The translations under genes and the position numbers were made by a program. From Myxococcota bacterium (GTDB lineage Bacteria > Myxococcota_A > SURF-8), in NCBI GenBank assembly GCA_965140415.1, contig OZ223209.1, positions 5,088,001 through 5,152,000 of the forward strand: a stretch of 64,000 bases of DNA. The letters run 5' to 3'. This document shows, in pieces, positions 1,492-62,645 of this stretch (the first letter of the stretch is position 1; each line of letters opens with the position of its first letter). The notes beneath the pieces were generated by a model, which had not been told where the DNA came from, did no database searches, and saw only the letters and a program-made list of their open reading frames with translations.

Positions 1492-4422
1492 ATGTTTTCA
1501 CATCGCCTACCTCTGATCGTTTGCGCACTGACATTGTTCTGGTTTTTAGCGCTGCCCGGTTGCAGCAGTGACAGCGATCCGGGAATCCTGTTTTCTGGAG
1601 ACATTGAACAGGCGGACACGTCCGTGGATGGCGATACGACCGATGCGGAAGCGGAACTTCCTGTAGAAGACGGTGACACTCAAGAAGGCGAGCAAGCTGC
1701 CGACGGCGACAGCACCGACGGGGATAGCGTCGTCGATGGAGATCTTCCCATTGATGGCGACACGGCAGATGGAGACGCGAGCGACGGCGACCTGATCTGG
1801 ATCGACGGTGATTTCTGGCCGGACGGCGATGATGTCGATGGAGATGATACCGATGGCGATGAAGAATTACAACGCCCCCGCCGTGGCTGGGTAGAGGAAC
1901 TGCCGGCCGAAAGCGCAAGTTGTGAAGATGCCTGCAAAACCATGGCGGATTGCGGTCACTTCGAAGGTCGTCACAGCGCAATCGATGACGAGGCGGATTG
2001 TTTACAGCGTTGCCAAAACGCAGATAGCCTTCCTTTCGGCGGTCCGACCTATTCAGACGACTATTTCAAGCGTTGCGCCTCGCAGACCGACTGCAACGAC
2101 AACCAGTATTGCAGCGACTGGCTGGCCGATCCGCGTGTGGATTATTCCTGCGAAGTCGTTTGTCTGTGCATGGAAGGCTATATGAACGAAACCGGAATAC
2201 GCACCGATTTCAGCATGTTAAACGACACTGCGTATACTCCGCAGGGCTTGACTCCAGCGACCGACGTGCAGGTCTTCGACAACCGCTCTTCGTTGGATAT
2301 CGAAGCGGCGCTGGACGCCTTCGACGTTCCCGCTCGCCTGTACGCCAAAGGGCATTTCGTTCAGATCCGCGCCACGCAACTGGCCGATCCGCAAGGCATA
2401 TTGGCCCTAGCCCAGAACATGGAACCGCTGCCGACCTTCCGCGACGCCAACGGACGCATTCTGGCTGCCACCGACCGCCTGATCGTGACCCCCAAGACCG
2501 GACGTCATACGTTACAAGCTAGCAGCTTTGCTGCACTGGGTCTGCAAAAAGCCAAGCAACTGAGCTGGTCGCCCTCCGGTATGTGGATCGCTCAGGCCGA
2601 CTCTCCGCGCGAAGCACTGCGCATCGCCGCCCAGCTTAACCAACGCAACGACATCACGGCGGAAATCGACTACGTCCGGTTCTACAAACGGCACTATATT
2701 CCCAACGATCCGCTTTTCGATTACCAGTGGCATCTGCGCAATACCGGCATGACGCAGCAGGTCGCCCACAATGATGCACGCGTGTGGGAAGCCTGGGATC
2801 TGGAAAAAGGCGAGCAGAGCGTGGTATTGGGCATCAACGACGATGGCTGCGACCTGAACCACCCGGATCTCGTCGGAAATATGGAACCGGCACTGGACTT
2901 CCCCGATGACTGGGAAGCGCAAGCACTGGCGGGAAGTTTTGGCTGGCACGGTTCGAGCGTAGCCGGTGTGACTGCCGCAAAGGGTGACAACTCTATAGGT
3001 GTCAGCGGTGTCTGTCCCAATTGCCGCCTGCGTTGCAGTAACGCCTTTGAATACCCTTCGGAAGACGATCCCATCGGCTCCAGCGACAGCATCACCGCCA
3101 GCAAATTCGTGTTACAGGCCGACGCAGGAACGGCAGCGGTCAACAATAGCTGGGGCTACGACATGGGCGATCCGCTCGTCTGGGGTGACGCCCCTGCTTT
3201 GATTCCCTTGGCCGGTGTCATTCGCGACGCCTTCGCCTATGCTGAAAGCGACGGCCGAGATGGCAAAGGCATGGTGATTCTTTTCTCCGCCGGAAATGAG
3301 AATACGGATCTGGCCGGAAATGAAATGCTGAATGTCGACACCATTGTGACCGTCGGCGCAACCGACGATCAGGGCTTGAAGAGCTACTATTCCAGCTTCG
3401 GCGCGACCGTGGATATAACCGCTCCCAGTAACGGCGGCATTACGGGTATCGTCACCACCGCCGCACGCGGCAGCGGCGATAACGGCCAGGACGACTACAC
3501 CTTCTCCTTCGGCGGCACCAGTTCCAGTTGTCCCTTCACCACCGGCGTGGTCGGTTTGATCCTTTCCGCCAACCCCGATTTGACCGCAGCCCAGGTACGC
3601 GACATTCTGAAAAAGAGCGCGCGCAAAATCGATCCGGCTCATGGCAAGTGGGATGAAAACGGCCACAGCAAGTATTACGGCTACGGCATGGTGGATGCCT
3701 ATGTCGCCGTCAGCATGGCACTGGATGCACAAAGCTGCACCGAACGTGAAGACTGCCTCTCCCCCACCGACCGCTGCACGAGCATTGGCCGGGACGGCGC
3801 CTGCGAGCGGGCGGCCTGTGATGAATGCACCGACAACAGCCAGTGCGCCTCCGGCGCGTGTCAGGCGTTACCGGAATTGCAGAAACAGCTTTGCGTGGAA
3901 AGCATGACCGAACAGGGAGCCTGCCCGGCAGAGCATTACGAAGTCAACGGCTATTGCCTGCCGCAACGCGGTGCTTGCGGTTCCTGCGACAGCACGGAAG
4001 ACGAAGTCTGCAACGGTCGCGACGACGACTGCAACGGCGTCGTCGATGACGGCGGCGTATGTGGCGATTACGAGCAGTTATGCCACGACGACCGCGATTG
4101 CCCCAGCGGCACGATCTGTCTGGCCTTGCAATGCTATCCCACCTGTACGAACGATGCGGATTGCGCTTCGGATCAATATGAAATGGACTGCCTGTATCCC
4201 TCCGGTCGTTTCGGTGGCGAGTTGCCAAGCTCTCAGGTGTGTATGCGTGTCGGCTTCGGGATGGAATGCGATGCCATGTGCGGCTTGATGCTTTCGGATA
4301 ACGACGATCAGAACATGCTGGATATCCAAGCCTGCATCGAGGATCAGGTCATCAACAACCAGGTCAACTGCATGGGATTGTTCCAGCAATGCATGTCCCT
4401 GCTCGGTGGGCGCAGCGAGTAG
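1492..4422 (+). CDS. S8 (subtilisin-like) serine protease lipoprotein with DGD tract and Cys-rich domains
   Basis: Lipobox LPGC; catalytic motifs INDDG, WHGSSVAG, SAGN, FGGTSSSCP; PNDPLF..QWHL mature start; Cys-rich flanks including EVCNGRDDDCNGVVD. Confidence 0.92.
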   Translation: MFSHRLPLIVCALTLFWFLALPGCSSDSDPGILFSGDIEQADTSVDGDTTDAEAELPVEDGDTQEGEQAADGDSTDGDSVVDGDLPIDGDTADGDASDGDLIWIDGDFWPDGDDVDGDDTDGDEELQRPRRGWVEELPAESASCEDACKTMADCGHFEGRHSAIDDEADCLQRCQNADSLPFGGPTYSDDYFKRCASQTDCNDNQYCSDWLADPRVDYSCEVVCLCMEGYMNETGIRTDFSMLNDTAYTPQGLTPATDVQVFDNRSSLDIEAALDAFDVPARLYAKGHFVQIRATQLADPQGILALAQNMEPLPTFRDANGRILAATDRLIVTPKTGRHTLQASSFAALGLQKAKQLSWSPSGMWIAQADSPREALRIAAQLNQRNDITAEIDYVRFYKRHYIPNDPLFDYQWHLRNTGMTQQVAHNDARVWEAWDLEKGEQSVVLGINDDGCDLNHPDLVGNMEPALDFPDDWEAQALAGSFGWHGSSVAGVTAAKGDNSIGVSGVCPNCRLRCSNAFEYPSEDDPIGSSDSITASKFVLQADAGTAAVNNSWGYDMGDPLVWGDAPALIPLAGVIRDAFAYAESDGRDGKGMVILFSAGNENTDLAGNEMLNVDTIVTVGATDDQGLKSYYSSFGATVDITAPSNGGITGIVTTAARGSGDNGQDDYTFSFGGTSSSCPFTTGVVGLILSANPDLTAAQVRDILKKSARKIDPAHGKWDENGHSKYYGYGMVDAYVAVSMALDAQSCTEREDCLSPTDRCTSIGRDGACERAACDECTDNSQCASGACQALPELQKQLCVESMTEQGACPAEHYEVNGYCLPQRGACGSCDSTEDEVCNGRDDDCNGVVDDGGVCGDYEQLCHDDRDCPSGTICLALQCYPTCTNDADCASDQYEMDCLYPSGRFGGELPSSQVCMRVGFGMECDAMCGLMLSDNDDQNMLDIQACIEDQVINNQVNCMGLFQQCMSLLGGRSE

Positions 4423-4439
4423 ACGACAACCTTTCGATG

Positions 4440-4478
4440 AATGGGTGGTAAGGGCTAAGCCACAGGCTTGCCCTTGTT
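4440..4478. repeat. REP-like palindrome, family B (TGGGTG...AAGC...GCTTGCCC)
   Basis: AAGGGCTAAGCC-ACA-GGCTTGCCCTT hairpin; related copies at 11161-11257. Confidence 0.55.
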
Positions 4479-4500
4479 CGAAAACCCCTTTAATGTACCT

Positions 4501-4568
4501 GTAGCGGCGGAGCGTAAGCCCGCCGTTTTTTAATGACGTTTCTCGGCGGGCTCACGCCTCGCCGTTAC
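4501..4568. repeat. GTAG-type REP doublet (REPIN-like), copy 1
   Basis: GTAGCGGCGGAGCGTAAGCCCGCCG...CGGCGGGCTCACGCCTCGCCGTTAC inverted pair; near-identical copy at 27132-27193. Confidence 0.7.
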
Positions 4569-4697
4569 GAAGAAGCATCAGTAGTATATGGGTGAAAACT
4601 CTTATAGGAACCCGCATATCCGGAAAAGGGCACTCCATTTGCGGCATATCGACGATATACGCAATGGAAGAGAGGGGAAGTGTAACGTTTGAGGATG

Positions 4698-5724: not shown

Positions 5725-8436
5725 ATGAGCGCAAAACTGGCGTGGTGTATCGGGTGGCTCGTGGTGATACTTGTGCTGTGTATAGCCTGCGGCGATGGAA
5801 ACGACGCCGAAAGCGACGGTGATTTCAGCGGCGATGGCGATCAGGAAGTCGATGGCGACACCGAGGGCGAAACCACCGCCTGCACGCAGGATTTCGACTG
5901 CAAGGATGGTGAACTCTGCGAGGAAGGCTATTGCATCCAGGCAGCGGATCTACGCTACAATCTGGACGCAGGCACCAGCCTGCTCGTCTATCGCAACGAC
6001 ACAGGCCGGGTGAATCTCTACACAACAGACGGTAGCTGGATCGTGCAGGCTGCCGACGCGCGCATGCTGCTCGATGCTACCGATGAAACCGCTACGGTGC
6101 TTACGGTTGCCTCCAGTTCCCAGCGCACGGTCGAGCGAGTCGAGGCGGAGCAGGACAGTCTTGGACTGGCCGACCGGCTCATCATTCGGGCAAGCGGACA
6201 ACAGGAAGGCGTCACGCTCATCTGGACGCTGAGCGCTTATGCGGAACAGGGCTTCTATACGGCACAACTGGAATTGCAGAACGACAGCAGCCAGACCGTA
6301 CAACTGGCCAAGGGTTCGGCCTTTGAAGTTCGCGCCGAAAAGCAGGGCGGCGTCTTTTTGGGCGAACATCCCACCACGCACCGCATCCTGGAGAATGGCT
6401 CCTATACCTACCTGGATTTTTACGTCGCCATCGAACCGGGCGACGTGCAGGCAAATCCGCTCACCTCCGTCGGTATTCCCGGTAACTTCGAGGGCTACTC
6501 GGTGTCGAACCTGGATCACGGCGTGATGGATCTGCAAAGCGATGCCATCTGGGTGGCGGGCGCATTGAGCTTCGAGCATTCGCTGCCGGTTATCAATCTA
6601 TCCTACGACGCAGGCGCGGCGCTCGTTTCTCCCGATGGACGCACCGGTTTCAGCTACTTCTCGGCGGAAGCGGCCTATGAACCGCTGAACAAACCGATTG
6701 AAAGTGGAGCAAGCTTTGCAACGGAAACCTTTTACCTGCATCCTTCGGAAAGCAATTTCTTCCAAGGCATGGAAAACTGGGCAAGCGCCGTCAAGCATTT
6801 CAACGATATCGTATTATGGACGGAAAAAGACGAAAACAACCGCGTCCCAAACGGCTGGAACTCCTGGTCCACCTCGGGCAGCACCGGCGGCTACGGTACG
6901 GATATCAATGAAACGGTGATTCTGGAAAACCTGCAAATTATGGCCGACGAATTCCGCGACTGGGGCATGGACTGGTTCCAGATCGACGACGGCTACGAGC
7001 CGGCCTACGGCGACTGGTGGTGGCGCGAAGACCGCTTCCCGCATGGCGCAGCCTGGATGGCGCAGCAGATCCGCGACAAGGGTTTCCGTCCCGGCTTGTG
7101 GATGGCTCCCATGACGCACGACGATCGCTCGCAAACGCTGGCCGAACATCCGGACTGGTTCGCCGGACCCGATTTCTTCCCGCCCGCCTATAACGTGCTC
7201 GATCTCACCAACCCGGAAGTCAAAGACTACCTGGCCGATCTGTTCAACACCTTCCGCAATGAATGGGGCTTCGAGTGGTTCAAAATGGACTTTTCCTATC
7301 ATGCCCTGTTCGGCGGCGAATTTCACGATCCCTCGCAAACCCGCGAAGAGGCATACCGGGGAGCCTGTCGCATCATCCGCGAAGCCATCGGCGACGACAC
7401 CTTCTTCCTGGCCGTCTCCGCACTGGGACCGCACATGGGCCTGATTGACGCCAACCGCCTGACGCTGGACAACATGCCGGTGTGGGACATGGAACCGGAT
7501 CAGACCGACTCGGGCAAGGGCGGGCAGCAGGGTTTCAAACCGACGGTGCGCTCCGCCGCGCGCCGCTATTACCTGCACGAACGGGTATGGATCAACCACT
7601 CCGACTTGATCGTGTTCCGCAGCAACACGCGCGACGAAACCTGGCCTCGGGTGACCTTGGATGAATCGCAGGCATTCTGCTCCTATGTAGGCATGACCGG
7701 CGGCATCGTCAAACTGGGTGACCGCCTGGTGGATTTGCAAGGCGATCACATCAACTCGGTTAGAAAGCTGTTGCCGATTTACAGTAAGGGCGGGCGACCG
7801 CTGGACATGATACAACTGGAGGTACCGGAGTTCTGGCATCTGCGCGTCGATCAAACCGATGGCGGATTCGAGCAGGGCTACGATCTGGTGGCGTTATTCC
7901 ATTGGGGCAAGAACTGGGATCAGACAGTCAGTCCCTACGCTCTGATTCCGGACACCGACACGCCGCGCCATCACGCATTCAAGCTTTCCGACATCGGTAT
8001 GGATGCAAGTAAAACCTATCTGGCCTACGAATTCTGGACCGGCGAATTCCTGGGCGAAGTCGACGATGAATTTGAATTGGACGTTCCCTCGCATACGGGG
8101 CGCGTGGTGGCGTTACGCGAAAAGCTGGACCGACCGCAGTTCCTTGGTTGGAACCGACACCTGACCATGGGCGCGGTGTTACTGGGCGCAGTGGATTGGG
8201 ACGAAAACGCACAAACCTTGACATTGCACGCTCCCATCGTTCCGGGAACGGAGAAAGCCCCATTTACCTACGAACTGGCGTTTTATCTCCCGGAAGGAAC
8301 CAGCTACGCCGACTATACCGCCAGTGGCGACAGCGACGCCTCGGTTCAGGCCGAGCAGCAAGGACGTGTACTGCGCGTTCAATATGAACCGAGCAAAATC
8401 CACGATCTGGAGTTGGAACTGTCTTTTACAAAATGA
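5725..8436 (+). CDS. Alpha-galactosidase-like glycoside hydrolase (GH36/clan D) lipoprotein with DGD tract
   Basis: Lipobox IAC; GWNSW, FQIDDGY, RFPHG, GLWMAP and FKMDF motifs; AGGAGA RBS before ATG 5725. Confidence 0.88.
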   Translation: MSAKLAWCIGWLVVILVLCIACGDGNDAESDGDFSGDGDQEVDGDTEGETTACTQDFDCKDGELCEEGYCIQAADLRYNLDAGTSLLVYRNDTGRVNLYTTDGSWIVQAADARMLLDATDETATVLTVASSSQRTVERVEAEQDSLGLADRLIIRASGQQEGVTLIWTLSAYAEQGFYTAQLELQNDSSQTVQLAKGSAFEVRAEKQGGVFLGEHPTTHRILENGSYTYLDFYVAIEPGDVQANPLTSVGIPGNFEGYSVSNLDHGVMDLQSDAIWVAGALSFEHSLPVINLSYDAGAALVSPDGRTGFSYFSAEAAYEPLNKPIESGASFATETFYLHPSESNFFQGMENWASAVKHFNDIVLWTEKDENNRVPNGWNSWSTSGSTGGYGTDINETVILENLQIMADEFRDWGMDWFQIDDGYEPAYGDWWWREDRFPHGAAWMAQQIRDKGFRPGLWMAPMTHDDRSQTLAEHPDWFAGPDFFPPAYNVLDLTNPEVKDYLADLFNTFRNEWGFEWFKMDFSYHALFGGEFHDPSQTREEAYRGACRIIREAIGDDTFFLAVSALGPHMGLIDANRLTLDNMPVWDMEPDQTDSGKGGQQGFKPTVRSAARRYYLHERVWINHSDLIVFRSNTRDETWPRVTLDESQAFCSYVGMTGGIVKLGDRLVDLQGDHINSVRKLLPIYSKGGRPLDMIQLEVPEFWHLRVDQTDGGFEQGYDLVALFHWGKNWDQTVSPYALIPDTDTPRHHAFKLSDIGMDASKTYLAYEFWTGEFLGEVDDEFELDVPSHTGRVVALREKLDRPQFLGWNRHLTMGAVLLGAVDWDENAQTLTLHAPIVPGTEKAPFTYELAFYLPEGTSYADYTASGDSDASVQAEQQGRVLRVQYEPSKIHDLELELSFTK

Positions 8437-9376: not shown

Positions 9377-9976
9377 ATGCATATAACAAAAGGATTGCTG
9401 CTACTGGCTTTGCTGCTAACCTTCGGTTTTTCAAGCGGTTGCGGCACGTTGTACTATTATTCAACCAAAGTGCAGGAAACAAAAGATCAGGCTGCCTTGC
9501 AGAAGGCTCCAGTTTATTACGTGAAACACATCAGCTTCGATCAGATTCCCAAACCGGAGGATTACGAGTCGGAACAACAGTGGCGCGAGGAAATCGATCA
9601 CTTGATGCCGGAATACGAAGAGGAAGTGAGCGCCTGGGCCAAAGAAGCGAACCTGGTTGGTAAAGTGATTCCCTTGAAAAAGGATCAGAAAGCGGACAAA
9701 GGTGTCCTGGTGGAAGCCGAAGTCAAAAACATTCGTCGCGAATGGAGCGGATTTTCAGGCGGATTCGATTATCTGACTTCCGACATTCGTTTTACCGACG
9801 TTCAAAGCGGCGAAGTGCTCTTTACCGCCGAAGTGGAAACGACCTCGCTTCGCTATGGTCCGATCGGTTGGCGTGCGAATGCGTTTTCAGGAAGGTTGGC
9901 TTTCAATACCTGGAATGTCGTAAGAGCGATTTTCAGCGCGATTCAAAACGGCAAGATCGATCCGTTACAGTATTAG
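9377..9976 (+). CDS. Hypothetical lipoprotein (no DGD tract)
   Basis: Hydrophobic signal ending in SSGC; start placed at the ATG following AAAGG. Confidence 0.7.
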   Translation: MHITKGLLLLALLLTFGFSSGCGTLYYYSTKVQETKDQAALQKAPVYYVKHISFDQIPKPEDYESEQQWREEIDHLMPEYEEEVSAWAKEANLVGKVIPLKKDQKADKGVLVEAEVKNIRREWSGFSGGFDYLTSDIRFTDVQSGEVLFTAEVETTSLRYGPIGWRANAFSGRLAFNTWNVVRAIFSAIQNGKIDPLQY

Positions 9977-19577: not shown

Positions 19578-20483
19578 ATGCTAAAAAACAGTTGTTTTCT
19601 GCTTGCTTTAATGATTTTTCTACCAATTCTCTTTTCCTGCAACGATGGTGGTGATACAGCCGATGGCGATGTGACAGATGATGATTTAGAACCAGACAAA
19701 GATGTTGAAATGGACAGTTCTGAATTAGATATTGATTCGGATATGGATGTCAACTCCGATATTGCTGAAGAGGAAAAAGAACAATATCGGATGACTTATA
19801 CTGGGCATTTGGATTACAAAGGTGAAGCTTCATTCTTTATACCGGAAATCAGATTTGATGATATGCCAATCATCCAGGGGTTAGTCTATTCGGAAAATTA
19901 CGCAGTCACAGGTTATGTCGAGATTGGAAACATTGTCCCGAACGAGGGTGAATTTCAATTTTCCTCTGGTGTTTCTAATGCCAATTCGGAATTCATCCTG
20001 GTAATTAGCAAAAATCCATCAAGAAAAACTTACCATGGAACACTTGATGGTAATGGGGAAGCATCAGTTTTAGTTTCAGAAATTAACCAGATAGACATGC
20101 CAACCATTCAAGGCTATGTGTACTCGGAAAACTACTCCACAGCTGGTTACGTGACAATCGGCAACATCGTGCCGGGTAATGGTGAATTTCGGTTCTTCGC
20201 TGGTATTTCAAATGCAAATTCCGATTACATTCTTGTAGTCGACGATTCGGAGATGCGGTCCATCTACACAGGAAACCTTGATGGTAACGGGGACGCAAAT
20301 ATCCATGTGCCAGAAATTCGTCTTGATAACATGCCTATTGTTCAAGGGTTTGTGTGGACTGAAAACTACTCTGTTCCAGGATATGTCACTTTAGGAAGCA
20401 TCATACCTTCCGATAATAATTTCAGATTCTCGGCAGGCGGTGTTAACTCAAACGTTGCTTATATCCTCGTCATCAATCCATAG
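19578..20483 (+). CDS. Lipoprotein with three tandem ~77-aa repeats of unknown family, AT-rich
   Basis: Lipobox LFSC, acidic DGD leader; three repeats Y.G.LD..G.A....EI..D.MP.IQG.V.SENY...GYV.IG.IVP....F.F..G..N.N...ILV. Confidence 0.75.
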   Translation: MLKNSCFLLALMIFLPILFSCNDGGDTADGDVTDDDLEPDKDVEMDSSELDIDSDMDVNSDIAEEEKEQYRMTYTGHLDYKGEASFFIPEIRFDDMPIIQGLVYSENYAVTGYVEIGNIVPNEGEFQFSSGVSNANSEFILVISKNPSRKTYHGTLDGNGEASVLVSEINQIDMPTIQGYVYSENYSTAGYVTIGNIVPGNGEFRFFAGISNANSDYILVVDDSEMRSIYTGNLDGNGDANIHVPEIRLDNMPIVQGFVWTENYSVPGYVTLGSIIPSDNNFRFSAGGVNSNVAYILVINP

Positions 20484-40175: not shown

Positions 40176-40514
40176 CTATTCGCCCATGTAAATGTTGTCC
40201 TGGCAATAGGTCGATTCACAGTTCTCGAACTGATGGCAGTTCATGGCATCATAAGCGGCCTCTGCGCATTGCAGGCAAGACTCCGAACGGGTTTTAGGGC
40301 GCACGGAGCCTTTGCCGTGGGCGCATAACAGTACCTGCTCGGTTAGTTCTTCCGGCGTCATGTCGCTGTAGATTTCTTCCAGATCCTCGGACAGTCCGCA
40401 TTCGTCGATCAGCATAAAGCAGTATTTTTCCAGGGGGGTGGGACCGGAAGAGCCACAGGCAACAAAAACGCTGCATAGTATCAGGGTAAGGAGCGACAAC
40501 TGCAATACTCTCAT
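40176..40514 (-). CDS. Small Cys-rich lipoprotein (no DGD tract)
   Basis: GGAGA RBS; lipobox VAC; 8 further Cys. Confidence 0.75.
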   Translation of the reverse strand: MRVLQLSLLTLILCSVFVACGSSGPTPLEKYCFMLIDECGLSEDLEEIYSDMTPEELTEQVLLCAHGKGSVRPKTRSESCLQCAEAAYDAMNCHQFENCESTYCQDNIYMGE

Positions 40515-48700: not shown

Positions 48701-51700
48701 CGACGAAGAGCAGGATCAGTGCACGTATACACCCGATGACGGCTTGTGCACGGAAGATCCGGGTGTCTGCCGCACACTGGTCGGCTGCGACCCGGATGAC
48801 GGCTGCATGTTCGCCAATCGCCCGGACGGAGAAACCTGCGATGTAAATCCGGAAGAGCCGGAAATCTGTCAGAACGGAGTGTGCGTGCCCGGCTGTCAGG
48901 CGGCTGAAGACTGCGACGACGGTATCGAATGTACGCTCAATACCTGTGTGGATAACTGGTGCGTGTTCGTGCCGCAGAACGAGTTATGCCAGGATGATAG
49001 CTACTGCAATGGCGCGGAAGTCTGTAGCGCGGTGTCGGGTTGTATCGCCGGTTCGGAGCCGGACTGCGATGACGAATTGGTATGTACGCGCGATCAGTGC
49101 AACGAAGCGATCGATGGATGCGAGCACATTCCCGAAAACAGTTGGTGCAACGACGGGCTGTACTGTAACGGTGTGGAAATCTGCGATCCCCAGGACGTGG
49201 AGCACGATGAAAACGGTTGCGTGCCCGGTACGGCGATCGTGTGCGAAGATGACGGCATCGATTGCACCGAGGAAGAATGCTCCGAAGATTCCCATGCCTG
49301 CGAGCATATTGCAAACGATGAGCTCTGTTCCGACAACCAGTTCTGCACCGGCGTGGAAATCTGCCATCCGGTCGATGGCTGCCAGCCGGGAGCCTTGCCT
49401 AATTGCAGTGATGACGTGGATTGCACGGTGGACAGTTGCGATTCGCAGAGCGATAGCTGCGTACATGAGGCGAGCGATGCCTTGTGCAGCGATAATGTGT
49501 TCTGTAACGGAGTTGAAATCTGCGACGAGCAGACCGGTTGCCAGGACGGACCCGACCCAAGCTGTGAAGACGGTGTGGATTGCACCGTGGATCGCTGCGA
49601 TACGGAAAGCGACACCTGTGCCAATGAACCGGACGACAGCGCCTGTGACGATCTGGATTACTGCACCGGCGTGGAAACCTGCGATGTATCGCAAGGTTGC
49701 GTGAGCGGCACGGCGGTGACTTGTGACGACGGTTTCTCCTGTACGACCGATACCTGTAGCACGGAGCTGGCGCGTTGCGTGTATACCCCGGAAAATAGCG
49801 CCTGCGATAACGACGCGTATTGCGACGGTGTGGAAACCTGCGATCCCGAGAATCCCGGTCACGATGACAATGGCTGCGTTCCCGGTACGGATGTCGTTTG
49901 CGAAGATGCCTTTACCTGTACACAAGATCGCTGCGATGAAGACACGGATCAGTGCGCGTTCGATCCGGTAGACGCCAACTGCGCCAACGCTTTCTATTGC
50001 GATGGTGCGGAAACCTGCGATCCGCAGAATCCCGCTGCGGCGGCTGATGGCTGCGTACCGGGAACGGATCCCTGCGACGATGGCTTCGCTTGTACCGCAG
50101 ACAGTTGCGACGAACCGACGGACGTCTGCACGAATACGCCGCAGGACAGCGCCTGCGACGATACCCTGTATTGCACCGGCGCGGAGAGCTGCGACCCGCA
50201 GAATGGAAGCGCCGACGAATTCGGTTGCGTGGCGGGTACGCCGCCAGATTGCGCCGACGGCATCGCCTGCACAGTGGATGACTGCTCCAACGAATCGTCG
50301 TCTTGTACGCATACACCCGACGATTCCGCCTGCGCGGACGAGTTCTACTGCAACGGCGTTGAAATCTGCGATGCGCAGACCGGCTGTCAGGACGGCCCCG
50401 ACCCGGATTGCTCGGATGCGTTTAGCTGCACCGTGGATAGCTGCGATGAGGCGAACGATGAGTGCGTACATGAGCCGGTCAATTCCTCCTGCGATGACGG
50501 CGTATACTGCAACGGCGATGAAGTCTGCTCGACGACGCAGGGCTGTGTCACCATCCAACGCAACTGCTCCGACGGTGTGGATTGTACCGAGGATAGCTGT
50601 GTAGAGAATGAGCAGCGTTGCGAACACACGCCGCAGGATTCCGAATGCGACGACGACAATCCCTGTACCGCGCCGGATGTCTGCGATTTACAGGAAGATT
50701 GTCAGACGACCGTGTTACAAGATGGCACCACCTGTGACATCGATCCGACGAAGGTTGAAACCTGCCAGCAGGGTGAGTGCGTCCCCAACTGCGTTGAACA
50801 CATCGACTGCGACGATGGTCAGGACTGCACCACGGATACCTGCAATTCCTCCGGCGTGTGCGAGTACCAGCGCAATGATGATCTCTGCAACGAAGGACGC
50901 GCCTTCTGCGATCCGATCTACGAATGTAAGCCCTTTACCGGCTGCGTGGCGGGCGATCCGCCGGACTGCAACGATGACATCGCCTGCACCATCGATGAGT
51001 GCGATACGCAGCAGCAGGCTTGCGTACATACACCAGACGATACCGCCTGTGATGACGGCAAGGTCTGCACCGTGGACAGCTGCGATGACGTCGATGACTG
51101 CCAGCATGATCCGGTTGCGGACGATACCCCCTGCGATGTCGATCCCACCCGCGTGGAAAGCTGTCAGAACGGTCTATGCGTGGCGGATTGCCTGGAAGAT
51201 GAGGATTGCGACGACGAGCAGGAATGCACCACGGATAGCTGCTCGGCGCAAGGCGTTTGCGAATTCGAACCGGATCACGATTCGTGTAACGAAGGCTTGA
51301 CCGCCTGCGATACGCCGTATGTCTGCATTGCGTTTGAGGGCTGCGTGGAAAGCGATCCGATCGATTGCGACGACGATGAACCCTGCACCACCGATACCTG
51401 CGACGATACGCTGGGCTGTCAGTACGAGGCGCTGCCGGATGGCACCATCTGTGATGATGGCTGGGTATGCGATGCGGGCGTGTGCGTGGAAGCCTCGCTA
51501 GACGGCGACCTGGAAATGGATATCGACTTGCCACCGGATGGCGATATGGAACGCGATTCGGAAGGCGAACAACCACCGGATGGCGACGAAGATCTGGATC
51601 ATGATACAGAACTTGATATCCAGCCGGATGGCGATGCGGATGCCATTGAAGAACCGGAAAAGGATGTGGTCGTTGTCGACGGTGACGAGGAGCAAGCGGG

Positions 51701-51944
51701 CGATATCGATGCGGTTGTCGATGGCGATGAAATCCCCGCCGATAGCGATTTTACAATCGACGGCGATGAAGATGCGTCCATCGATGGCGATACGGAAAGC
51801 ACCGTGGACGGCGATGACAATGGCGATGGTGGCGGTTGCAGTTGCAACGGCTCGGCCTCGACGCCGCAGGGCTTATTGCTTATGGCATTGGCCTTACTGG
51901 CAGCCTGGATGCGTCGCCGAATGCACGGACGCTTAGGTGAATAA
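45798..51944 (+). CDS. Giant secreted Cys-rich repeat protein with DGD tract and MYXO-CTERM sorting signal
   Basis: Sec signal (ASAQA); roughly 30-35 CDDG..CT.D.C units alternating with CNG.ETCD; C-terminal GGGCSC + TM + RRR. Confidence 0.9.
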
Positions 51945-52094: not shown

Positions 52095-53954
52095 TTACGG
52101 TCGCACGCAGCGTACCTGCGAAAGCGCTTCGTCCTTTTTATCCGAATCGATGGCCCCGGCGTAAAAACCGACGAACCAGGCGTTCTCCGTCGTCGTGTTG
52201 ACTTCGGAATTCGACCAGGTATTGTCGTTGCAGCCGCCTAGCAACATCGGATCCCAGTAGCAGTGGTTCTGGCTGTCGTCGCAACCTTCGCAGGCGGAGT
52301 TCATACAGGTATCCGCCAAACAGCCATCGCGCACGTTGCAGGCCCCGGCGCTTTCCGTATTCGAACAATCACGAATCAGGCTGCGCAGTTCGGTCAGGCT
52401 CGGCAAGCGCCAGTCGCTGAAACCCGCCCAGCTTAAGGTATTGCAATAACTCTGCGCGGAACTGAAGCCGCGCGTCGCGGCGAGTGTCGGATCCTGCCAG
52501 GTCAGGTTGGTATTGGCATCCGTGCAGGCGCGTTCGCTGGGCACACCGGTACAGCTCATGCTGCTCTGCATCGCTTCCTCTTCCAGCTCCATCAGGTCAG
52601 CATCCAAATCGCCATCGGGTGCAGGAAGATCGTCGTCGCCGGGGAGTTCGCCATCGCCATCGGGAGGCAACTCCGCATCCTGATCGCCATCTGCGGCCAG
52701 ACAACGCATGCAACGCGCCAGGAATGCACTATCTTTCGACGAAGAATTGATCGCCCCGGCGTAGAAGCCAACGAACCAGGCGTTTTCATTTGTCGTACTG
52801 ACTTCGGAATCCGACCAGGTATTCTCGTTGCAGCCACCTTGCAAAGCCTCGTCCCAATAGCAGCTTCCCGTACCGGCAGTACAGCCGTCGCAGTCGCCAC
52901 TGTCGAAACAGGTATCTGCCAAACAGGCATCGTGAACGCCGCAGGCGCCGCCGCTTTCGGTTTCCGAGCAATTCACGATCAGGCTGCGCAACTGCGAAAT
53001 CGTCGGCAGGCACCAGTCGTCGTAACCGTTCCAGCTTAAATTCTCGCAGTAGCTCTGCGCCTGGGCAAAGGAACGCTCGGTTTCGGCTGGTGGGTCTTGC
53101 CACACGTAGCCGGTCGCCAGATCTTCACAAACGCGCTCGCTGATCGTCCCCTGGCAGTGCATGGTGGCGCTGGAATCCGGGTCGCTATCGCCATCGGGAA
53201 CATCACCGTCAACGCTGTCACCATCGGGGGCATCTCCGTCGCTGCTATCGCCATCAACATTGTCGCCATCGGTAATATCGCCATCCGATGCATCGCCATC
53301 CGGCACGTCGCCGTCACCCGTGTCGCCATCGGCGGGCGTATCGTCATCGCCATCGGGAGTGGAAGATTCACCAACCACACAACGCACGCGCAGTTCGCTT
53401 TCCTTGGGATTGCTGTTCAAGCCGGCAGAGTAAAAACCGATGAACCAGGCGGTGGTGGGAGCGTCCGTCACTTCCGAAGCGGACCACAGATCGATTTCGC
53501 AATCGCTGCCCAGCGCTTCGTCCCAATAGCAGCGTCCCGCCGAGCAGCCGGAGCAGTCGTTGCTCAAGCAGGAGGCGGTCAGGCAACCGTCGGTGATGCC
53601 ACACTCGCCGCCGGTGGCGGTGTGGTCGCAATCGCGCACCATCGAACGCAACTCGGAGATCGTCGGCAGCCGCCAGTCGTCGCGACCACCATAGCTGAAT
53701 TGCTCGCAGTAATCGATAGCCGCCTGCCAGTTGTACCGTTGCTCCGATATCGGCTGCGCCCAGCGCAAGTCGCTTTCAGAATCGCTGCACAGCGAGTCCC
53801 CGTTGACATCCTCGCATAGTACTTCGCCGTTGCCGGACGTGTCGCCATCGGTCGAGGAATCGCCGCTATCGTCGGAGCAGCCGAGCTGCACCAGCAGACC
53901 GGCGAGTAGTGACAGCAACACTGGTCCTATATTCAGACAACGCTTGCGCTTCAT
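52095..53954 (-). CDS. Lipoprotein with three DUF1566 (Lcl C-terminal, CLec-like) domains joined by DGD linkers
   Basis: Lipobox QLGC; three copies of L.WQ...A..YC..L...G..DWRLPT..EL..WS.S.....AWF.GF..G.......VRCV. Confidence 0.88.
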   Translation of the reverse strand: MKRKRCLNIGPVLLSLLAGLLVQLGCSDDSGDSSTDGDTSGNGEVLCEDVNGDSLCSDSESDLRWAQPISEQRYNWQAAIDYCEQFSYGGRDDWRLPTISELRSMVRDCDHTATGGECGITDGCLTASCLSNDCSGCSAGRCYWDEALGSDCEIDLWSASEVTDAPTTAWFIGFYSAGLNSNPKESELRVRCVVGESSTPDGDDDTPADGDTGDGDVPDGDASDGDITDGDNVDGDSSDGDAPDGDSVDGDVPDGDSDPDSSATMHCQGTISERVCEDLATGYVWQDPPAETERSFAQAQSYCENLSWNGYDDWCLPTISQLRSLIVNCSETESGGACGVHDACLADTCFDSGDCDGCTAGTGSCYWDEALQGGCNENTWSDSEVSTTNENAWFVGFYAGAINSSSKDSAFLARCMRCLAADGDQDAELPPDGDGELPGDDDLPAPDGDLDADLMELEEEAMQSSMSCTGVPSERACTDANTNLTWQDPTLAATRGFSSAQSYCNTLSWAGFSDWRLPSLTELRSLIRDCSNTESAGACNVRDGCLADTCMNSACEGCDDSQNHCYWDPMLLGGCNDNTWSNSEVNTTTENAWFVGFYAGAIDSDKKDEALSQVRCVRP

Positions 53955-54185: not shown

Positions 54186-55979
54186 ATGCACCCCGCGTTA
54201 AAACAACAGTACACACTTATTGGGCTGCTTTTTGCTCTGCTGCTTGTTCTGCCCTCTGGTTGCGGAGACCAGAACGATTCTCAAGACAATCTGACGGATA
54301 CCGATCTCGCGGTTACAGACGGCGATTCAGAAACAGACGGCGACAACGTCGTTGCAGATGGCGATGCGGATGCGGATCGCGACAAAGACAGCGACACCGA
54401 GCAGGAAACGTCTTCGGAAGTTCGCTTTACGATTCTGCACACGAACGACGTGCACGCCCATATCGAAGAATTCGACTCCTACGGCGGCTCCTGCGACGAG
54501 GCGGAATCGCAGGCGGGGGAATGCTTTGGCGGAGTGGCGCGACACGCCACCTACATCGCAAACGTGCGCGCTCAGGCAGACGATGTGCTGCTACTGGATG
54601 CGGGTGACCGTTTTCAGGGTTCGCTGTACTACAGCCTGTATAAAGGCGAGGAAACCTACACCTTCATGAACATGCAGGCTTTCGATGCGATGGTGCTTGG
54701 CAATCACGAATTCGATAATGGCCTGGACGTGCTGGCGAGTTTCCTTGGGCATGTAAGCTTTCCCGTGATCAGCGCCAATGTCGCGTTTACGCAAAACCCG
54801 GCGATGGACGAACAGGTGCTTCCCTACGTGCTGAAAAACATTCAGGGAAGGCAGGTTGCCATTATCGGATTGACTTCCGAATCCACCCCGACCTTATCCA
54901 GTCCGGGAGACACGGTGCGCTTCGACGACCTCGTCACGTCGGCTCAGTCTGTCATCGATAGCCTGCAAACGCAGGGCGTACATATTGTCGTGTTGCTCAC
55001 CCACATCGGCTTGAATCACGACGAGCAACTCGCCACAGCGCTCTCCGACGTCGATGTCATTATCGGGGGACATTCGCACAGCCTGCTTTCCAATTCGGAT
55101 TCCGCCGATGGCGTAAGCGGTCCTTATCCGCTGATCACGCACGATGTGCAGGGCGATCCGGTGTTGATCGCCACGGTCGGGCAATACGGAGAATACGTCG
55201 GTCGCTTGAATCTGCTTTTCGACACACAGGGAAAGGTGCAGGTTGATTCCTCCAATGGCGAAGCGGTGCATATGGATGCGACGATCGCCCAGGAGCCCCG
55301 AACGTTAGCGCGTGTTACGGAAATGTCGACGGCCTTGGATTCGTATACGTCAACGGTGATCGGGCAGAATTCTGTCGAATTAAATGGCGATGCGGGCGTC
55401 TGCCGCTTTTACGAATGCACCATGGGCGATCTGGTATCCGACGCCATGCAGTGGCAAACCTCCGACGACGAGGTGGAAATCGCCGTCTTCAATGCGGGAG
55501 GCATTCGCGCCAGTATCGATCCGGGAGACATCGATTTGGCCGAAGTGTATAACGCCCTGCCCTTCGGCAATTCCATTTCCACCTTTCAACTAAGCGGGCA
55601 ATCACTGTTGAAGATGCTGGAGCATTCCGTCAGTGTGGCGGAAGATCCAGAAAACGACGGCACCGGGCGCTTTCTGCAAGTCTCCGGCCTGCGTTTGATC
55701 TGGAATCCCGCAAAGCCAGTGGGCGAGCGGCTGGAAACCGTGGAGATCGGTTCGCATGATACTGGTTTTACGCCGCTGAATGCGTCCACCCTGTATCGCA
55801 TCGCCACCAACAATTACATCCGCCAGGGCGGCGACGGCTACAATATGCTTGCCGAAGAGGCCGTCGCACCTTACGATTACGGCATGCTTATCACGGAAGC
55901 CGTTACAGCCTATGTAAGCGCCTACTCGCCCGTCACGGTACTGCTTGAAAACCGCATCCTACGAAGCGGGGAAGAGTGA
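54186..55979 (+). CDS. Bifunctional metallophosphatase/5'-nucleotidase lipoprotein with DGD tract
   Basis: Lipobox PSGC; HTNDVH, DAGD, GNHEFD, LLTHIG, GGHSH, NAGGIR, LPFGN, FLQVSG, GGDGY. Confidence 0.93.
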   Translation: MHPALKQQYTLIGLLFALLLVLPSGCGDQNDSQDNLTDTDLAVTDGDSETDGDNVVADGDADADRDKDSDTEQETSSEVRFTILHTNDVHAHIEEFDSYGGSCDEAESQAGECFGGVARHATYIANVRAQADDVLLLDAGDRFQGSLYYSLYKGEETYTFMNMQAFDAMVLGNHEFDNGLDVLASFLGHVSFPVISANVAFTQNPAMDEQVLPYVLKNIQGRQVAIIGLTSESTPTLSSPGDTVRFDDLVTSAQSVIDSLQTQGVHIVVLLTHIGLNHDEQLATALSDVDVIIGGHSHSLLSNSDSADGVSGPYPLITHDVQGDPVLIATVGQYGEYVGRLNLLFDTQGKVQVDSSNGEAVHMDATIAQEPRTLARVTEMSTALDSYTSTVIGQNSVELNGDAGVCRFYECTMGDLVSDAMQWQTSDDEVEIAVFNAGGIRASIDPGDIDLAEVYNALPFGNSISTFQLSGQSLLKMLEHSVSVAEDPENDGTGRFLQVSGLRLIWNPAKPVGERLETVEIGSHDTGFTPLNASTLYRIATNNYIRQGGDGYNMLAEEAVAPYDYGMLITEAVTAYVSAYSPVTVLLENRILRSGEE

Positions 55980-58530: not shown

Positions 58531-58602
58531 AAAGTTTCCTTGGCGGCACATGGTTAATGGAATTCACGCATTTTGCTTTCTGGCTAGTATAGGCACTATT
58601 AC

Positions 58603-58737: not shown

Positions 58738-58826
58738 GGAATCGGCGGCTAAATATAACGAATACTCCACGAAGAAAGAAGCAAGGGGGAGCCAGTGCAA
58801 AAACCAAAAACGGTAGAAAAAAAGGC

Positions 58827-58854
58827 TTGACATATAGTTTAGCTACTATACAAT
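58827..58854 (+). promoter_or_regulatory. Sigma70 promoter of marR with embedded operator GTTTAG-N3-CTATAC
   Basis: TTGACA-16 bp-TACAAT; near-palindrome at 58837-58851 matches 59375-59391. Confidence 0.7.
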
Positions 58855-58860
58855 AACACC

Positions 58861-59358: not shown

Positions 59359-59374
59359 TTTTTTTTACACAAAC

Positions 59375-59391
59375 GGTTTAGCACCTAAACC
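59375..59391. promoter_or_regulatory. Putative MarR operator
   Basis: Perfect palindrome GGTTTAG-CAC-CTAAACC, 18 bp upstream of the methyltransferase start. Confidence 0.65.
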
Positions 59392-59409
59392 ACCCGCAAG
59401 GAGGATTCC

Positions 59410-59997: not shown

Positions 59998-60049
59998 CAA
60001 ATGGGCAAAGGAATAGATTCTCTGTATTTAGCAAGCAATCTTGAAACTT

Positions 60050-60117: not shown

Positions 60118-60288
60118 GGATAAAACCATCACCAAAATCACATAAGAACCAAGTAGCGCCTGCACTTAATCCCGCCCATCTTAACCTGATTTTACTATTT
60201 TCTTAACAAACCGGCGCAGCTTGACTATGATGGGCTCCGGCATGGGCCAACGTTAATAACTGCTCGATAGCTGTACAAAGGTGATGTG

Positions 60289-61275
60289 ATGAAATCGACT
60301 TACTGTCTTAAAATGATTGTCGTTTTGCTCTTACTGATTCTCGCTGCCTGGGGCTGCTCGGATGATTCGAATGATCCCATTGTAGACGGCGATGGCGAAA
60401 ACGGCGACGGGGATGTGGATGGTGATTTCGACTTGGAAGCAGATGCGCTGCCTTCCGAAACGACATTGAACATCATGACCTACAACGTGCTTTGCTCCTT
60501 CTGCAACGCCACTTACGAGCCCTGGGAAGATCGTTTGCCGCATTTTACGGATATCTTCACCCGGCATGAAGTCGATATCGTCGGCACACAGGAATTATTC
60601 ACCGCAGATGAAGTGAATGAAATTCTGGCGCTCAATCCCAATTTCGAGGCGCTGTATTACATCGACGATCCCGACGATGGCCTGGGCTATCTGGAAGCCT
60701 ACCCGGACGAGGCGATTCTATACCGCACGGATCGCTTCGAAGTAATCGAACACGGCAACTACTGGCTTAGCGAAACCCCGGACGTTCCCTGGGCCGGTGG
60801 CTGGGCGCAAAACAATTTCTGGCGCCTGGTCGGCTGGGCGCATTTCCGGCAGATTTCCGATGGCCGCGAGTTCGTCTTTGTCAACACACACTTCGACAAC
60901 AACGTGCCCAACCAGGAAAACAGCGCGCCCTTATTCATCAGTCGCATCGAGCCCTGGGCGGAAACACTGCCGGTCATCGCCGTCGGCGATTTCAATTCCA
61001 AGCCGGACAGCCCCGCCTATGCCATTTTAACCGAAGGCATCGATGGCGAAGGCTTTGCGCTGGTCAACTCCTTCGATATCGCCGAGAACTGGCGCGTACA
61101 ACACAACCAGGCGCAGGAACCCGACTACGACCCGATTCATCGCATCGACCACATTTTCCTGGCCGGTCCGGTGGAATGGACCGTGTCCGACTGGGTGGTC
61201 GATCTAACGGTTTACGGGCCGCAGGATCAATATCCTTCCGACCATTATCCCATCGCCACAACACTGACCTTCTGA
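60289..61275 (+). CDS. Endonuclease/exonuclease/phosphatase (EEP) family lipoprotein with DGD tract
   Basis: Lipobox AWGC; MTYNV, GTQE, YWLSETP, NTHFD, GDFNS, RIDHIF, SDHYP. Confidence 0.92.
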   Translation: MKSTYCLKMIVVLLLLILAAWGCSDDSNDPIVDGDGENGDGDVDGDFDLEADALPSETTLNIMTYNVLCSFCNATYEPWEDRLPHFTDIFTRHEVDIVGTQELFTADEVNEILALNPNFEALYYIDDPDDGLGYLEAYPDEAILYRTDRFEVIEHGNYWLSETPDVPWAGGWAQNNFWRLVGWAHFRQISDGREFVFVNTHFDNNVPNQENSAPLFISRIEPWAETLPVIAVGDFNSKPDSPAYAILTEGIDGEGFALVNSFDIAENWRVQHNQAQEPDYDPIHRIDHIFLAGPVEWTVSDWVVDLTVYGPQDQYPSDHYPIATTLTF

Positions 61276-61388: not shown

Positions 61389-61661
61389 CTACAGGTCGCC
61401 GTCAGTGGCCATATCGCCATCAACCGTGATGTCGCCGTCTACGGTGATGTCGCCATCAACCGTGATGTCGCCGTCCACGGTCACATCGCCGTCCACGGTC
61501 ACGTCGCCATCTACTGTCACATCGCCGTCGGTGGTGCCGTCGCCGTCCACGGTGACGTCGCCATCGGTGGTGGTGTCATCATCGTCATCGCAGCCAACCA
61601 TAACCAACTGCAAACTGAACACGATTACCAGAACTAAGAAAAACAGGTGCTTGGCTTTCAT
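61389..61661 (-). CDS. DGD-repeat-only lipoprotein A (90 aa, 10 x 6-aa units)
   Basis: GGAGGAG RBS; signal MKAKHLFFLVLVIVFSLQLVMVG-C; CDDDDD then (xTxDGD)10. Confidence 0.8.
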   Translation of the reverse strand: MKAKHLFFLVLVIVFSLQLVMVGCDDDDDTTTDGDVTVDGDGTTDGDVTVDGDVTVDGDVTVDGDITVDGDITVDGDITVDGDMATDGDL

Positions 61662-61913
61662 CTCGCTCTCCTCCACGATTAAAATCTCACAACAAAATAC
61701 GCACAACGCGTAAAACAACTTCAGGGCGGTGATTGTGTATTGGAATTGCCGACATGTTTTAAAAAACGGAAGATTGCTGGGGATGTCATGGTTTGCGGAA
61801 TACGGATTTCATCTCAGCAGATTCCAGACGGCCAACTCCAACACGCTGTTTCCGAATGCGACAGACATTCGCTTCGCCCATAAAACCCCATGAAACAACA
61901 AATACGGGGCGCG

Positions 61914-61941
61914 ATTATACGGAAACTCGAAAAAGAATCAA
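61914..61941 (-). promoter_or_regulatory. Sigma70-type promoter for DGD lipoprotein A
   Basis: Minus strand TTGATT-16 bp-TATAAT. Confidence 0.5.
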
Positions 61942-62028
61942 CAAAAGAATTGTATAGACTGCTGATTTTCTTAATTTACAACAGGATGTAGCCTACGATC
62001 ACCCACTCATTGTACGCCTGAAAACGAC

Positions 62029-62055
62029 AGGCGCGAGGCGAAATGCCCCGCGCCT
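62029..62055 (-). terminator. Terminator of DGD lipoprotein B, paralogous to 61296-61326
   Basis: AGGCGCGAGGC-GAAAT-GCCCCGCGCCT; on the minus strand followed by GTCGTTTT. Confidence 0.7.
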
Positions 62056-62081
62056 TGTAAAACGTTTGACTATCGTTGGGA

Positions 62082-62645
62082 TTATTTACCCATTTCGACC
62101 AAGTCAACTTCCGCCAGATCGAATTCAGCCAGGTCAATTTCGAACATGTCGAAATCGCCGTCTGTGACCGCATCACCGTCAACAACTACATCGCCGTCAA
62201 CCACATCGCCGTCAACCACATCGCCGTCAACAACGACATCGCCGTCAACCGCATCACCATCAACAACGACATCGCCGTCAACCATGTCGCCGTCAACCAT
62301 GTCGCCGTCGGTCATGTCGCCGTCGGTCATGTCGCCGTCAACCATGTCACCGTCGGTGGTGTCGCCATCAGTGGTGTCGCCATCAACCGTGTCGCCGTCA
62401 ACCGTGTCGCCGTCAACCGTGTCGCCGTCAACCGTGTCGCCGTCAACCGTGTCGCCGTCGGTGGTGTCGCCGTCTGTGGTGTCGCCGTCTGTGGTGTCGC
62501 CATCAGCGTTGTCGCCATCAGCCATGTCGCCATCAGCCGTGTCACCGTCGACCGGGTCGTCGTCGTCATCACAGCCGACCATCGCCAACTGCATGCTGAA
62601 GACCAGAATCAGAACCAGGAAAAACAGGTGTTTACTTCTTTTCAT
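62082..62645 (-). CDS. DGD-repeat-only lipoprotein B (187 aa, 26 DGD units, mostly 5-aa period)
   Basis: GGAGGAG RBS; signal MKRSKHLFFLVLILVFSMQLAMVG-C; (xxDGD)n then FDMFE-IDLAE-FDLAE-VDLVE tail. Confidence 0.85.
   Translation of the reverse strand: MKRSKHLFFLVLILVFSMQLAMVGCDDDDDPVDGDTADGDMADGDNADGDTTDGDTTDGDTTDGDTVDGDTVDGDTVDGDTVDGDTVDGDTTDGDTTDGDMVDGDMTDGDMTDGDMVDGDMVDGDVVVDGDAVDGDVVVDGDVVDGDVVDGDVVVDGDAVTDGDFDMFEIDLAEFDLAEVDLVEMGK

Follow-up and report, generated by a model that had tools for sequence, protein, structure and literature searches.

A repeated Asp-Gly-Asp tract, probably an acidic anchor tether and inter-domain linker, in exported proteins of a Myxococcota lineage

In the staphylococcal Clf/Sdr proteins, Ser-Asp repeats form spacers between the surface anchor and the functional domains. 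Many outer-membrane lipoproteins of Escherichia coli have a disordered N-terminal linker, on which normal Lol sorting depends (10.1101/2021.01.05.425367). The lipoprotein export signal of Bacteroidota consists of a polar or basic residue followed by Asp/Glu at positions +2 to +6, e.g. SDDDD or SDDFE (PMC5080379). Lipoprotein signals of Myxococcus xanthus include Ala at +7 for the matrix and Lys at +2 for the inner membrane, and an Asp at +7 prevented FibA from being exported (PMC3222651). In TraA of the same species, a disordered region lies beside MYXO-CTERM, whose invariant Cys presumably receives a lipid before the type II system takes the protein to the surface (PMC11980579). Here we analyzed a 64,000-nucleotide stretch of a Myxococcota bacterium of the SURF-8 lineage (contig OZ223209.1, positions 5,088,001 to 5,152,000; hereafter the window), in which otherwise dissimilar exported proteins carry tracts of the tripeptide Asp-Gly-Asp (DGD). 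We consider it probable that the DGD tract is a selected, expandable, polyanionic and probably disordered anchor tether and inter-domain linker of this lineage's surface and extracellular proteins.

Open reading frame (ORF) calling with Pfam and NCBIfam searches revealed housekeeping genes (glyQ/glyS, der, era, thiC, a GGDEF protein gene, and exbB/exbD) mixed with strikingly many exported proteins. An earlier note on this DNA had named 13 exported proteins with DGD. All 13 genes were found in place and all products were DGD-positive, with 12, 3, 2, 1, 7, 9, 9, 9, 15, 3, 3, 10, and 26 units in order of gene start (109 in total); genes are designated below by their coordinates or starts. The units came in runs in most carriers, as had been claimed, but 19578 has one DGD only. 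DGD counts in the six reading frames of the window were 35, 2, 23, 1, 7, and 54, an unevenness which indicates that DGD is concentrated in the coding frames of the carrier genes. The carriers are indeed mostly unrelated by Pfam and NCBIfam: they include an S8 subtilase, a melibiase-like glycosidase, a PKD/Ig protein, a DUF2334+CotH protein, a protein with three Lcl_C domains, a 5′-nucleotidase, and an EEP-family protein, and 17123-19279 weakly matched the VolA/Pla-1 lipase family. Together with loci fetched from related genomes, none of which the window overlaps, the carrier families comprised S8, C11, glycoside hydrolase (GH), 5′-nucleotidase, EEP, PI-PLC, FGE-sulfatase, PKD/Ig, Lcl_C, and CotH.

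The tract adjoins the lipid anchor at either end of the protein, after the lipobox Cys or before a C-terminal tail. Twelve of the 13 carriers have a lipobox, and the exception, 45795, combines a type-I signal peptide with a C-terminal tail. DGD was present in 12 of the 16 lipobox proteins of the window as well as in its single MYXO-CTERM-like protein, so that the tract marks exported, lipid-anchored proteins. With a crude lipobox classifier, DGD was found in 9 of 12 lipobox proteins of the window versus 1 of 23 proteins lacking an N-terminal hydrophobic segment (p = 3 × 10−5); in the related loci, after removal of the ORFs that had seeded the search, the same comparison gave 4 of 9 versus 5 of 90 (p = 0.003). 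In 20 of the 28 DGD-carrying lipobox proteins of window and related loci, the distance from the lipobox Cys to the first DGD was 8-15 residues.

At the C-terminal anchor, the nine-unit tract of 45795 ends a few residues before a GGGC motif. The tail has the tripartite MYXO-CTERM layout (Gly/Cys motif, hydrophobic helix, Arg-rich end), and in NCBIfam it matches best the C-termini of myxosortase-dependent families; its match to TIGR03901 (MYXO-CTERM) itself, 14.8 bits with an expect value (E) of 0.029, lies below the curated cutoff of 20. In the related loci, two tails pass this cutoff (L020, 25.3 bits; L048, 23.4 bits) and a third scored 16.5 bits (L023). All four MYXO-CTERM-like proteins of window and related loci carry 2-13 DGD units within 100 amino acids (aa) upstream of the Cys. 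The proposed reuse of the tract as an inter-domain linker was borne out in 40773 (between DUF2334, 272-521, and CotH, 720-1062), in 52095 (twice between Lcl_C domains), and in 28465 (aa 397-419).

The unit can be written as [V/T/P/A]-D-G-D, with V (43), T (25), P (17), or A (10) at position −1 of the 109 units. Adjacent units were most often spaced by 5 residues (39 of 96 spacings) or 6 residues (26 of 96). Shuffling of whole proteins gave 0.2-5.1 expected DGD across the 13 carriers, against 1-26 observed. When only the residues within a tract were shuffled, the observed count was attained by 0 of 1000 shuffles in each of seven long tracts and by 1-45 of 1000 in six shorter ones; neither the single units nor the tract of 8 residues in 40773 reached significance (130-340 of 1000). 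The excess over within-tract shuffles shows that DGD itself is the unit, beyond a merely Asp/Gly-rich composition, and the earlier note's own reservation, that DGD might be no more common than linker composition predicts, does not apply to the long tracts. An origin by chance or composition was ruled out by the two kinds of shuffle. No DGD occurred in the 28 other curated genes of the window (8,790 aa; 1.87 expected, P(0) = 0.15), which agrees with the claimed absence of the tract from other proteins, but amounts to enrichment in the exported set and not to depletion elsewhere. The claim that several tracts end in DGD[L/F/I]D and a Glu-rich stretch held in the five places quoted for it, but this ending is mostly confined to the window; over window and related loci, DGD[L/F/I/M/V]D was found at 6 of 42 tract ends versus 6 of 195 inner units.

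Codon use argues for selection on the peptide. The two Asp of the unit are encoded by GAC/GAT in ratios of 55/54 and 57/52, like the background, and Tandem Repeats Finder reported DNA repeats matching at only 65-87%. Synonymous sites are thus scrambled while the peptide is kept, as expected of selection on the peptide and not of a fresh slippage product. Recent DNA slippage as the sole origin was ruled out by the same two observations.

Comparison with orthologues separated the fixed from the variable parts of the tract. Three relatives of 40773 with the same DUF2334+CotH architecture (36-41% identity) have kept the lipobox Cys, the acidic N-terminal tether, and the position of the inter-domain linker. 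DGD-x-DGD is invariant in all four proteins, whereas the number of linker units is 2-3 in one pair of proteins and 9 in the other pair. A fixed position and motif with free copy number points to an expandable spacer, and not to a signal read at a fixed register. In the 5′-nucleotidase of the window, about 60 residues with 3 DGD separate the Cys from the domain start, versus about 35 residues with 1 unit in a 57%-identical orthologue from a related metagenome-assembled genome (MAG). The lipobox forms inspected among the listed relatives have a spacer before the conserved domain start (TILHTNDVH), which in a few more distant ones is DGD-like or Ser/Thr-rich, and in most forms with a type-I signal peptide hardly anything separates the signal peptide from this start, judging from N-termini read by eye and without a count. 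DGD occurred within the first 130 aa of 6 of the 120 listed 5′-nucleotidase relatives.

Runs of four DGD units with period 5 were sought in 185,579 species genomes, and at least 117 stretches were returned. Among the matches listed (117), 36 were titled as Myxococcota taxa, and 10 came from one MAG, CAXXQS01; many others, in Actinomycetota, haloarchaea, and Planctomycetota, represent other repeats (DGDRR, DDGD, DGDER) or short, probably non-coding frames. In three MAGs (CAXXQS01, CAXXPQ01, and the SURF_8 MAG), the architecture of the window recurs, i.e. a lipobox, a short Ser/Gly/Asp segment, and PDGD or TDGD arrays, on carriers that include Peptidase_C11, PI-PLC, DUF4397, EEP, FGE-sulfatase, PKD/Ig, and metallophosphatase families. 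Related (GDGD)n or GDGDPGDGD arrays follow the lipobox in lipoproteins of Enhygromyxa, Nannocystaceae, and other Myxococcales (L004, L009, L044, L046, L073, L074). From these sequences, Asp-Gly-rich tethers seem to be widespread in marine Myxococcota, with lineage-specific units. Neither Pfam nor NCBIfam contains a model for the DGD tract, sub-threshold matches being limited to Bactofilin, TrAA12, and the ClfA Ser-Asp region, and a literature search of limited coverage yielded no paper on DGD repeats of exported bacterial proteins.

All ten tracts tested had a net charge per residue of −0.35 to −0.47 with 0-2 Lys+Arg, and all ten fell on the natively unfolded side of the charge-hydropathy boundary. 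AlphaFold2 models of the two array-only proteins, 61389 and 62082, were made without an alignment. The 26-unit array of 62082 showed no secondary structure, with a predicted local distance difference test score (pLDDT) of about 50.

The position of DGD, its non-randomness, the selection on the peptide, the variable copy number, and the recurrence across the lineage are thus observed features of the tract. A mechanism can be proposed on this basis. The tract would be a spacer module, (x2-3-D-G-D)n, carried by extracytoplasmic proteins at points that require flexibility, that is, from the lipidated Cys (of an N-terminal lipobox or a C-terminal MYXO-CTERM-like tag) to the first folded domain, or between folded domains. 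A charge of about −0.4 per residue and the near absence of Lys/Arg would keep it extended and mostly disordered. It may hold hydrolases and adhesin-like domains off the membrane surface, would offer few sites to the cell's own secreted proteases, and possibly carries bound divalent cations. If there is any sorting information, the repeats are a less probable site for it than the short acidic stretch that directly follows the Cys. The tethering proposed in the earlier note is consistent with all evidence gathered.

Several points weigh against such a tether. These are (i) the exact tripeptide, kept in 36%-identical orthologues with V/T/P at −1, which would suit a more specific role in metal binding, a turn, or modification; (ii) the rather regular distance of the first DGD from the Cys, which is not required of a pure spacer; (iii) a recurrent Trp sub-motif (DFDWWLPDGD and relatives), which is not accounted for; (iv) two genes that encode only a signal peptide and an array, odd for a mere linker; and (v) the AlphaFold2 model of the perfect VTVDGD array (61389), a beta-strand ladder with mean pLDDT 76 and a predicted template modeling score (pTM) of 0.50.

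Sub-motif (iii) occurs inside tracts of six unrelated proteins from three genomes, as DFDWWLPDGD, DFDWSLPGDGD, DFIWPDGDD, DGDLIWIDGDFWPDGDD, or DGDQIIWPDDD. Its sites are 1477-4422 (aa 100-120), 37801-39858 (aa 90-100), L011, L031, L048, and L019. A short linear motif with a dedicated partner is one possibility.

The acidic N-terminus (C-[S/G/D]-D/S-D..., then DGD) could instead be a lineage-specific surface-export signal, dividing lipoproteins into surface and periplasmic classes in the way of the Bacteroidota signal, or, in a variant, acting as the +2 Asp of pullulanase does, by Lol avoidance ahead of type II secretion. We regard this as unlikely, with the following points in its favor. Net charge over +2 to +7 was −2 or lower in 11 of the 12 DGD lipoproteins of the window, versus +1, +1, 0, and 0 in the four lipoproteins without DGD (9377, 27836, 37500, and 40514), whose neutral or basic N-termini had been correctly described. 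Judged by this charge, the Bacteroidota-type motif (a polar or basic residue, then at least two Asp/Glu within +2 to +6) is present, and segments such as CSDDSGD, CDDSGDD, CDDDDD, and CSDSESD resemble the working SDDDD and SDDFE signals, a resemblance only (PMC5080379). The first DGD keeps its distance from the Cys, as given above. Carriers are typical extracellular enzymes, and non-carriers include a TlpA/ResA-like periplasmic redox protein and a PIG-L enzyme. Type II secretion is, moreover, the route that brings MYXO-CTERM proteins to the surface (PMC11980579).

Other points speak against it. DGD arrays are also placed at C-termini or in the interior of the chain, at a depth of 400-600 residues, and their copy number is free among orthologues. 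The suggested division into two lipoprotein classes was clean in the window, but looser in the loci of related MAGs, where GH5 and GH114 lipoproteins without DGD blur the split; three lipoproteins without DGD are nevertheless acidic. The internal positions, the free copy number, and the two GH lipoproteins without DGD likewise leave unsupported the idea that the repeats themselves serve as a tag for sorting or surface display. The M. xanthus matrix signal, Ala at +7, was found in 1 of 12 DGD lipoproteins (5704, CGDGNDA), and Asp at +7 had the opposite effect on FibA (PMC3222651). The sample is small and the lipobox classifier crude. We give similarly little weight to the fuller proposal that the acidic start (Cys, a Ser/Gly/Asp-rich pentapeptide, and a near-fixed first DGD) is an independently arisen surface-export signal of a Myxococcota lineage that works like the one of Bacteroidota, with the array as a cargo-presenting stalk and the two array-only mini-lipoproteins as a lipid-anchored, cation-binding anionic brush on the cell surface.

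A rigid, Ca2+-bound beta-solenoid stalk, with V/T/I pointing inward and DGD at the corners, comparable to a left-handed beta-helix, bactofilin, or the RTX beta-roll, would be an alternative. V-D-G-D-V-T fits, by eye, the hexapeptide-repeat pattern, and beta-branched residues flank DGD. The ladder modeled for the VTVDGD array is regular, with strands of 4 residues, and there were weak Pfam matches to Bactofilin (E = 1.6 × 10−5) and TrAA12, both below their cutoffs. A Foldseek search with this model against the PDB returned 66 matches at E ≤ 10, the top, non-significant ones being beta-helices, but none at E ≤ 0.001. The 26-unit array, mostly of period 5, was predicted to be unstructured, spacings from 4 to 8 are mixed within single tracts, Pro occupies −1 in 17 of the 109 units, and in none of the 13 proteins did Pfam (E ≤ 0.01) recognize Hexapep, HemolysinCabind, or TSP_3. 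Ca2+ binding by Dx[DN]xDG-type motifs, to which the earlier note had appealed, does not suit most units either, since it needs period 4, seen in 2 of 96 spacings; a DxDxDG fit was seen in orthologue linkers of the DGDADGD type. AlphaFold2 is described as producing confident yet unrealistic beta-solenoids for perfect repeats (PMC11795689), and our models were alignment-free. Because of this over-prediction, the solenoid is retained as a minority possibility, and a rather improbable one.

It is very improbable that DGD is in the first place a modification site (e.g. for O-glycosylation of flanking Thr, or for deliberate isoaspartate at Asp-Gly), with the spacer role secondary. The Asp-Gly bond is prone to isomerization. 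Thr is frequent in the flanks (25 at −1, 35 at −2, and 22 at +1 of the 109 units), and a 694-aa membrane protein of the window, 24238-26322 (+), weakly matched PMT_2, a protein mannosyltransferase-like family (E = 2.9 × 10−5, below cutoff). No transferase is linked to the tracts, however, and V and P occur at −1 as often as T. Finally, it is very improbable that the tracts are neutral by-products of replication slippage and Asp/Gly-rich composition, tolerated in exported proteins only, for although the arrays are tandem in the DNA, vary in copy number among orthologues, and have short-period counterparts of other kinds in many phyla, DGD exceeds the within-tract shuffles, the codons are scrambled with the peptide kept, DGD-x-DGD is invariant at 36% identity, and the same architectural positions recur in several genomes.

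The tracts of the window and the comparator lipoproteins are listed in Table 1.

Table 1. DGD tracts, associated features, and comparator lipoproteins of the window
Feature	Position	Strand	Gene or protein
N-terminal tract, 12 units, aa 51-128, includes DGDLIWIDGDFWPDGDD	1627..1860	+	lipoprotein subtilase gene 1477-4422
N-terminal tract, 3 units	5815..5859	+	lipoprotein 5704-8436, melibiase/GH31-like
N-terminal tract, 2 units	17216..17266	+	lipoprotein 17123-19279
Single DGD within acidic N-terminus	19662..19670	+	lipoprotein 19578-20483
Internal tract, 4 units, aa 397-419, ends DGDLDLEPEQEE	29653..29721	+	Cys-rich lipoprotein 28465-31797
Extra units	28618-28626 and 28753-28800	+	28465-31797
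N-terminal tract, 8 units, aa 83-136	38047..38208	+	PKD/Ig-like lipoprotein 37801-39858; extra unit 37894-37902
N-terminal tether, 2 units	40896..40919	+	lipoprotein 40773-43988
DUF2334-CotH inter-domain linker, 7 units, aa 561-596	42453..42560	+	lipoprotein 40773-43988
C-terminal tract, 9 units, aa 1903-2007, directly before sorting tail	51501..51815	+	2049-aa protein 45795-51944
MYXO-CTERM-like tail: GGGCSC, hydrophobic helix, Arg-rich end	51828..51920	+	protein 45795-51944
Linker 1, 11 units, aa 201-256, between Lcl_C domains	53187..53354	-	lipoprotein 52095-53954; N-terminal unit 53841-53849
Linker 2, 3 units, aa 422-449, ends DGDLDADLMELEEE	52608..52691	-	lipoprotein 52095-53954
N-terminal tract, 3 units	54318..54365	+	lipoprotein 5′-nucleotidase 54141-55979
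N-terminal tract, 3 units, ends DGDFDLEAD	60385..60426	+	EEP-family lipoprotein 60286-61275
Hexapeptide array VTVDGD, 10 units, nearly whole mature part	61395..61565	-	mini-lipoprotein 61389-61718
26-unit array, then FDMFEIDLAEFDLAEVDLVEMGK	62154..62549	-	mini-lipoprotein 62082-62699
Comparator lipoprotein without DGD, SSGC/GTLYYY (slash after Cys)	9377..9976	+	
Comparator lipoprotein without DGD, LLSC/SRVQPQ	27836..28462	+	
Comparator TlpA/ResA-like thioredoxin lipoprotein without DGD, VSAC/QSAPSKRSRR	36880..37500	-	
Comparator 112-aa Cys-rich lipoprotein without DGD, no family match	40176..40514	-	

The two mini-lipoproteins, 61389-61718 (−) and 62082-62699 (−), are adjacent paralogues with nothing but a signal peptide, CDDDDD, and an array, the second ending in FDMFEIDLAEFDLAEVDLVEMGK. 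On the opposite strand, the 62082 array is overlaid by an ORF with SPSTT repeats, 62146-62808 (+), which is probably an artefact of the array. A search for relatives of 62082 among proteins of 103-329 aa gave 16 matches. Of 15 fetched, 8 have a lipobox, a DGD array, and a further domain, two of them encoded on the window's own 5.98-Mb contig; the remaining 7 form an unrelated group without signal peptide. No array-only relative was present in these 15 matches, so that this search did not identify the mini-lipoproteins as a conserved gene type. An ESM Atlas look-up of the 62082 protein returned a best score of 0.80 and no family. The group without signal peptide (P0124-P0126, P0128, P0131, P0132, and P0135) has DGDVTDGDVV arrays with conserved flanks (LPGREKFLA.PGCRSY) and may represent spurious ORFs over a DNA repeat.

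A few neighboring features were also noted. The proteins 45795-51944 (+; 2049 aa) and 28465-31797 (+; 1110 aa) are very large and Cys-rich, with many short Cys-spaced modules, and their sole family match is a weak one to the Dictyostelium CTDC repeat. The comparator 40176-40514 resembles, in size and kind only, a 112-aa Cys-rich lipoprotein without DGD from the CAXXQS01 MAG (L041, 16496-16834). The lipoprotein ORF 9323-9976 (+) is overlapped by a long DUF2804 ORF, 9742-11115 (+); as the domain covers only aa 115-457 of the latter, its true start is probably near 10084. The membrane protein 24238-26322 adjoins another one without family, 23306-24229 (+). The guanine+cytosine (G+C) content of the window is about 54%, with a dip to 0.447 at 56001-60000 (versus about 0.54-0.58 elsewhere). 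This segment encodes a protein with DUF3825 and a cold-shock domain, a GNAT acetyltransferase, a MarR regulator, and a methyltransferase, and may be an acquired island.

If the DGD tract is indeed a tether and linker, the cell-surface proteome of this lineage would possess a recognizable linker unit, as cellulases do in their Pro/Thr linkers and staphylococcal adhesins in their Ser-Asp repeats, and the tract would serve as a cheap sequence marker for surface-anchored enzymes in genomes of uncultured Myxococcota. For annotators, it is a warning that sequence masked as low-complexity is informative here. It also raises the question whether an acidic segment after the Cys directs lipoproteins to the surface outside Bacteroidota; lipoprotein export in Myxococcota is only partly known.

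Among known systems, the Ca2+-binding Asp-rich motifs (DxDxDG/EF-hand, thrombospondin type 3, RTX) share Asp-Gly-Asp content and an extracellular setting with the DGD tract, but differ in spacing, with period 4 in 2 of 96 cases, and in Pfam, where TSP_3 and HemolysinCabind did not match. The Bacteroidota export signal is likewise found on surface hydrolases and binding proteins, but comprises 4-5 residues at a critical position and not a repeat of 15-130 residues, and belongs to another phylum (PMC5080379). With TraA, the tract shares the place of a spacer directly upstream of an invariant, presumably lipidated Cys in a C-terminal sorting tag; no DGD composition is reported for TraA in the available part of that source (PMC11980579), and the tail found in the window scores below the TIGR03901 cutoff. 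The disordered linkers of E. coli lipoproteins also follow the lipidated Cys directly and vary in length (10.1101/2021.01.05.425367); their predicted lack of structure is matched by the charge-hydropathy result for the DGD tracts, but not by the AlphaFold2 model of the VTVDGD array. The DGD tract differs in that it is built of a defined, selected tripeptide, is strongly acidic, and occurs also at C-terminal anchors and between domains. The NCBIfam ClfA match to residues 591-652 was weak (18.8 bits against a cutoff of 1150) and does not indicate homology. Although the Clf/Sdr proteins are Gram-positive and wall-anchored, with SD as their unit, their Ser-Asp repeats and the DGD tracts are alike in being short acidic repeats of variable copy number that separate an anchor from functional domains.

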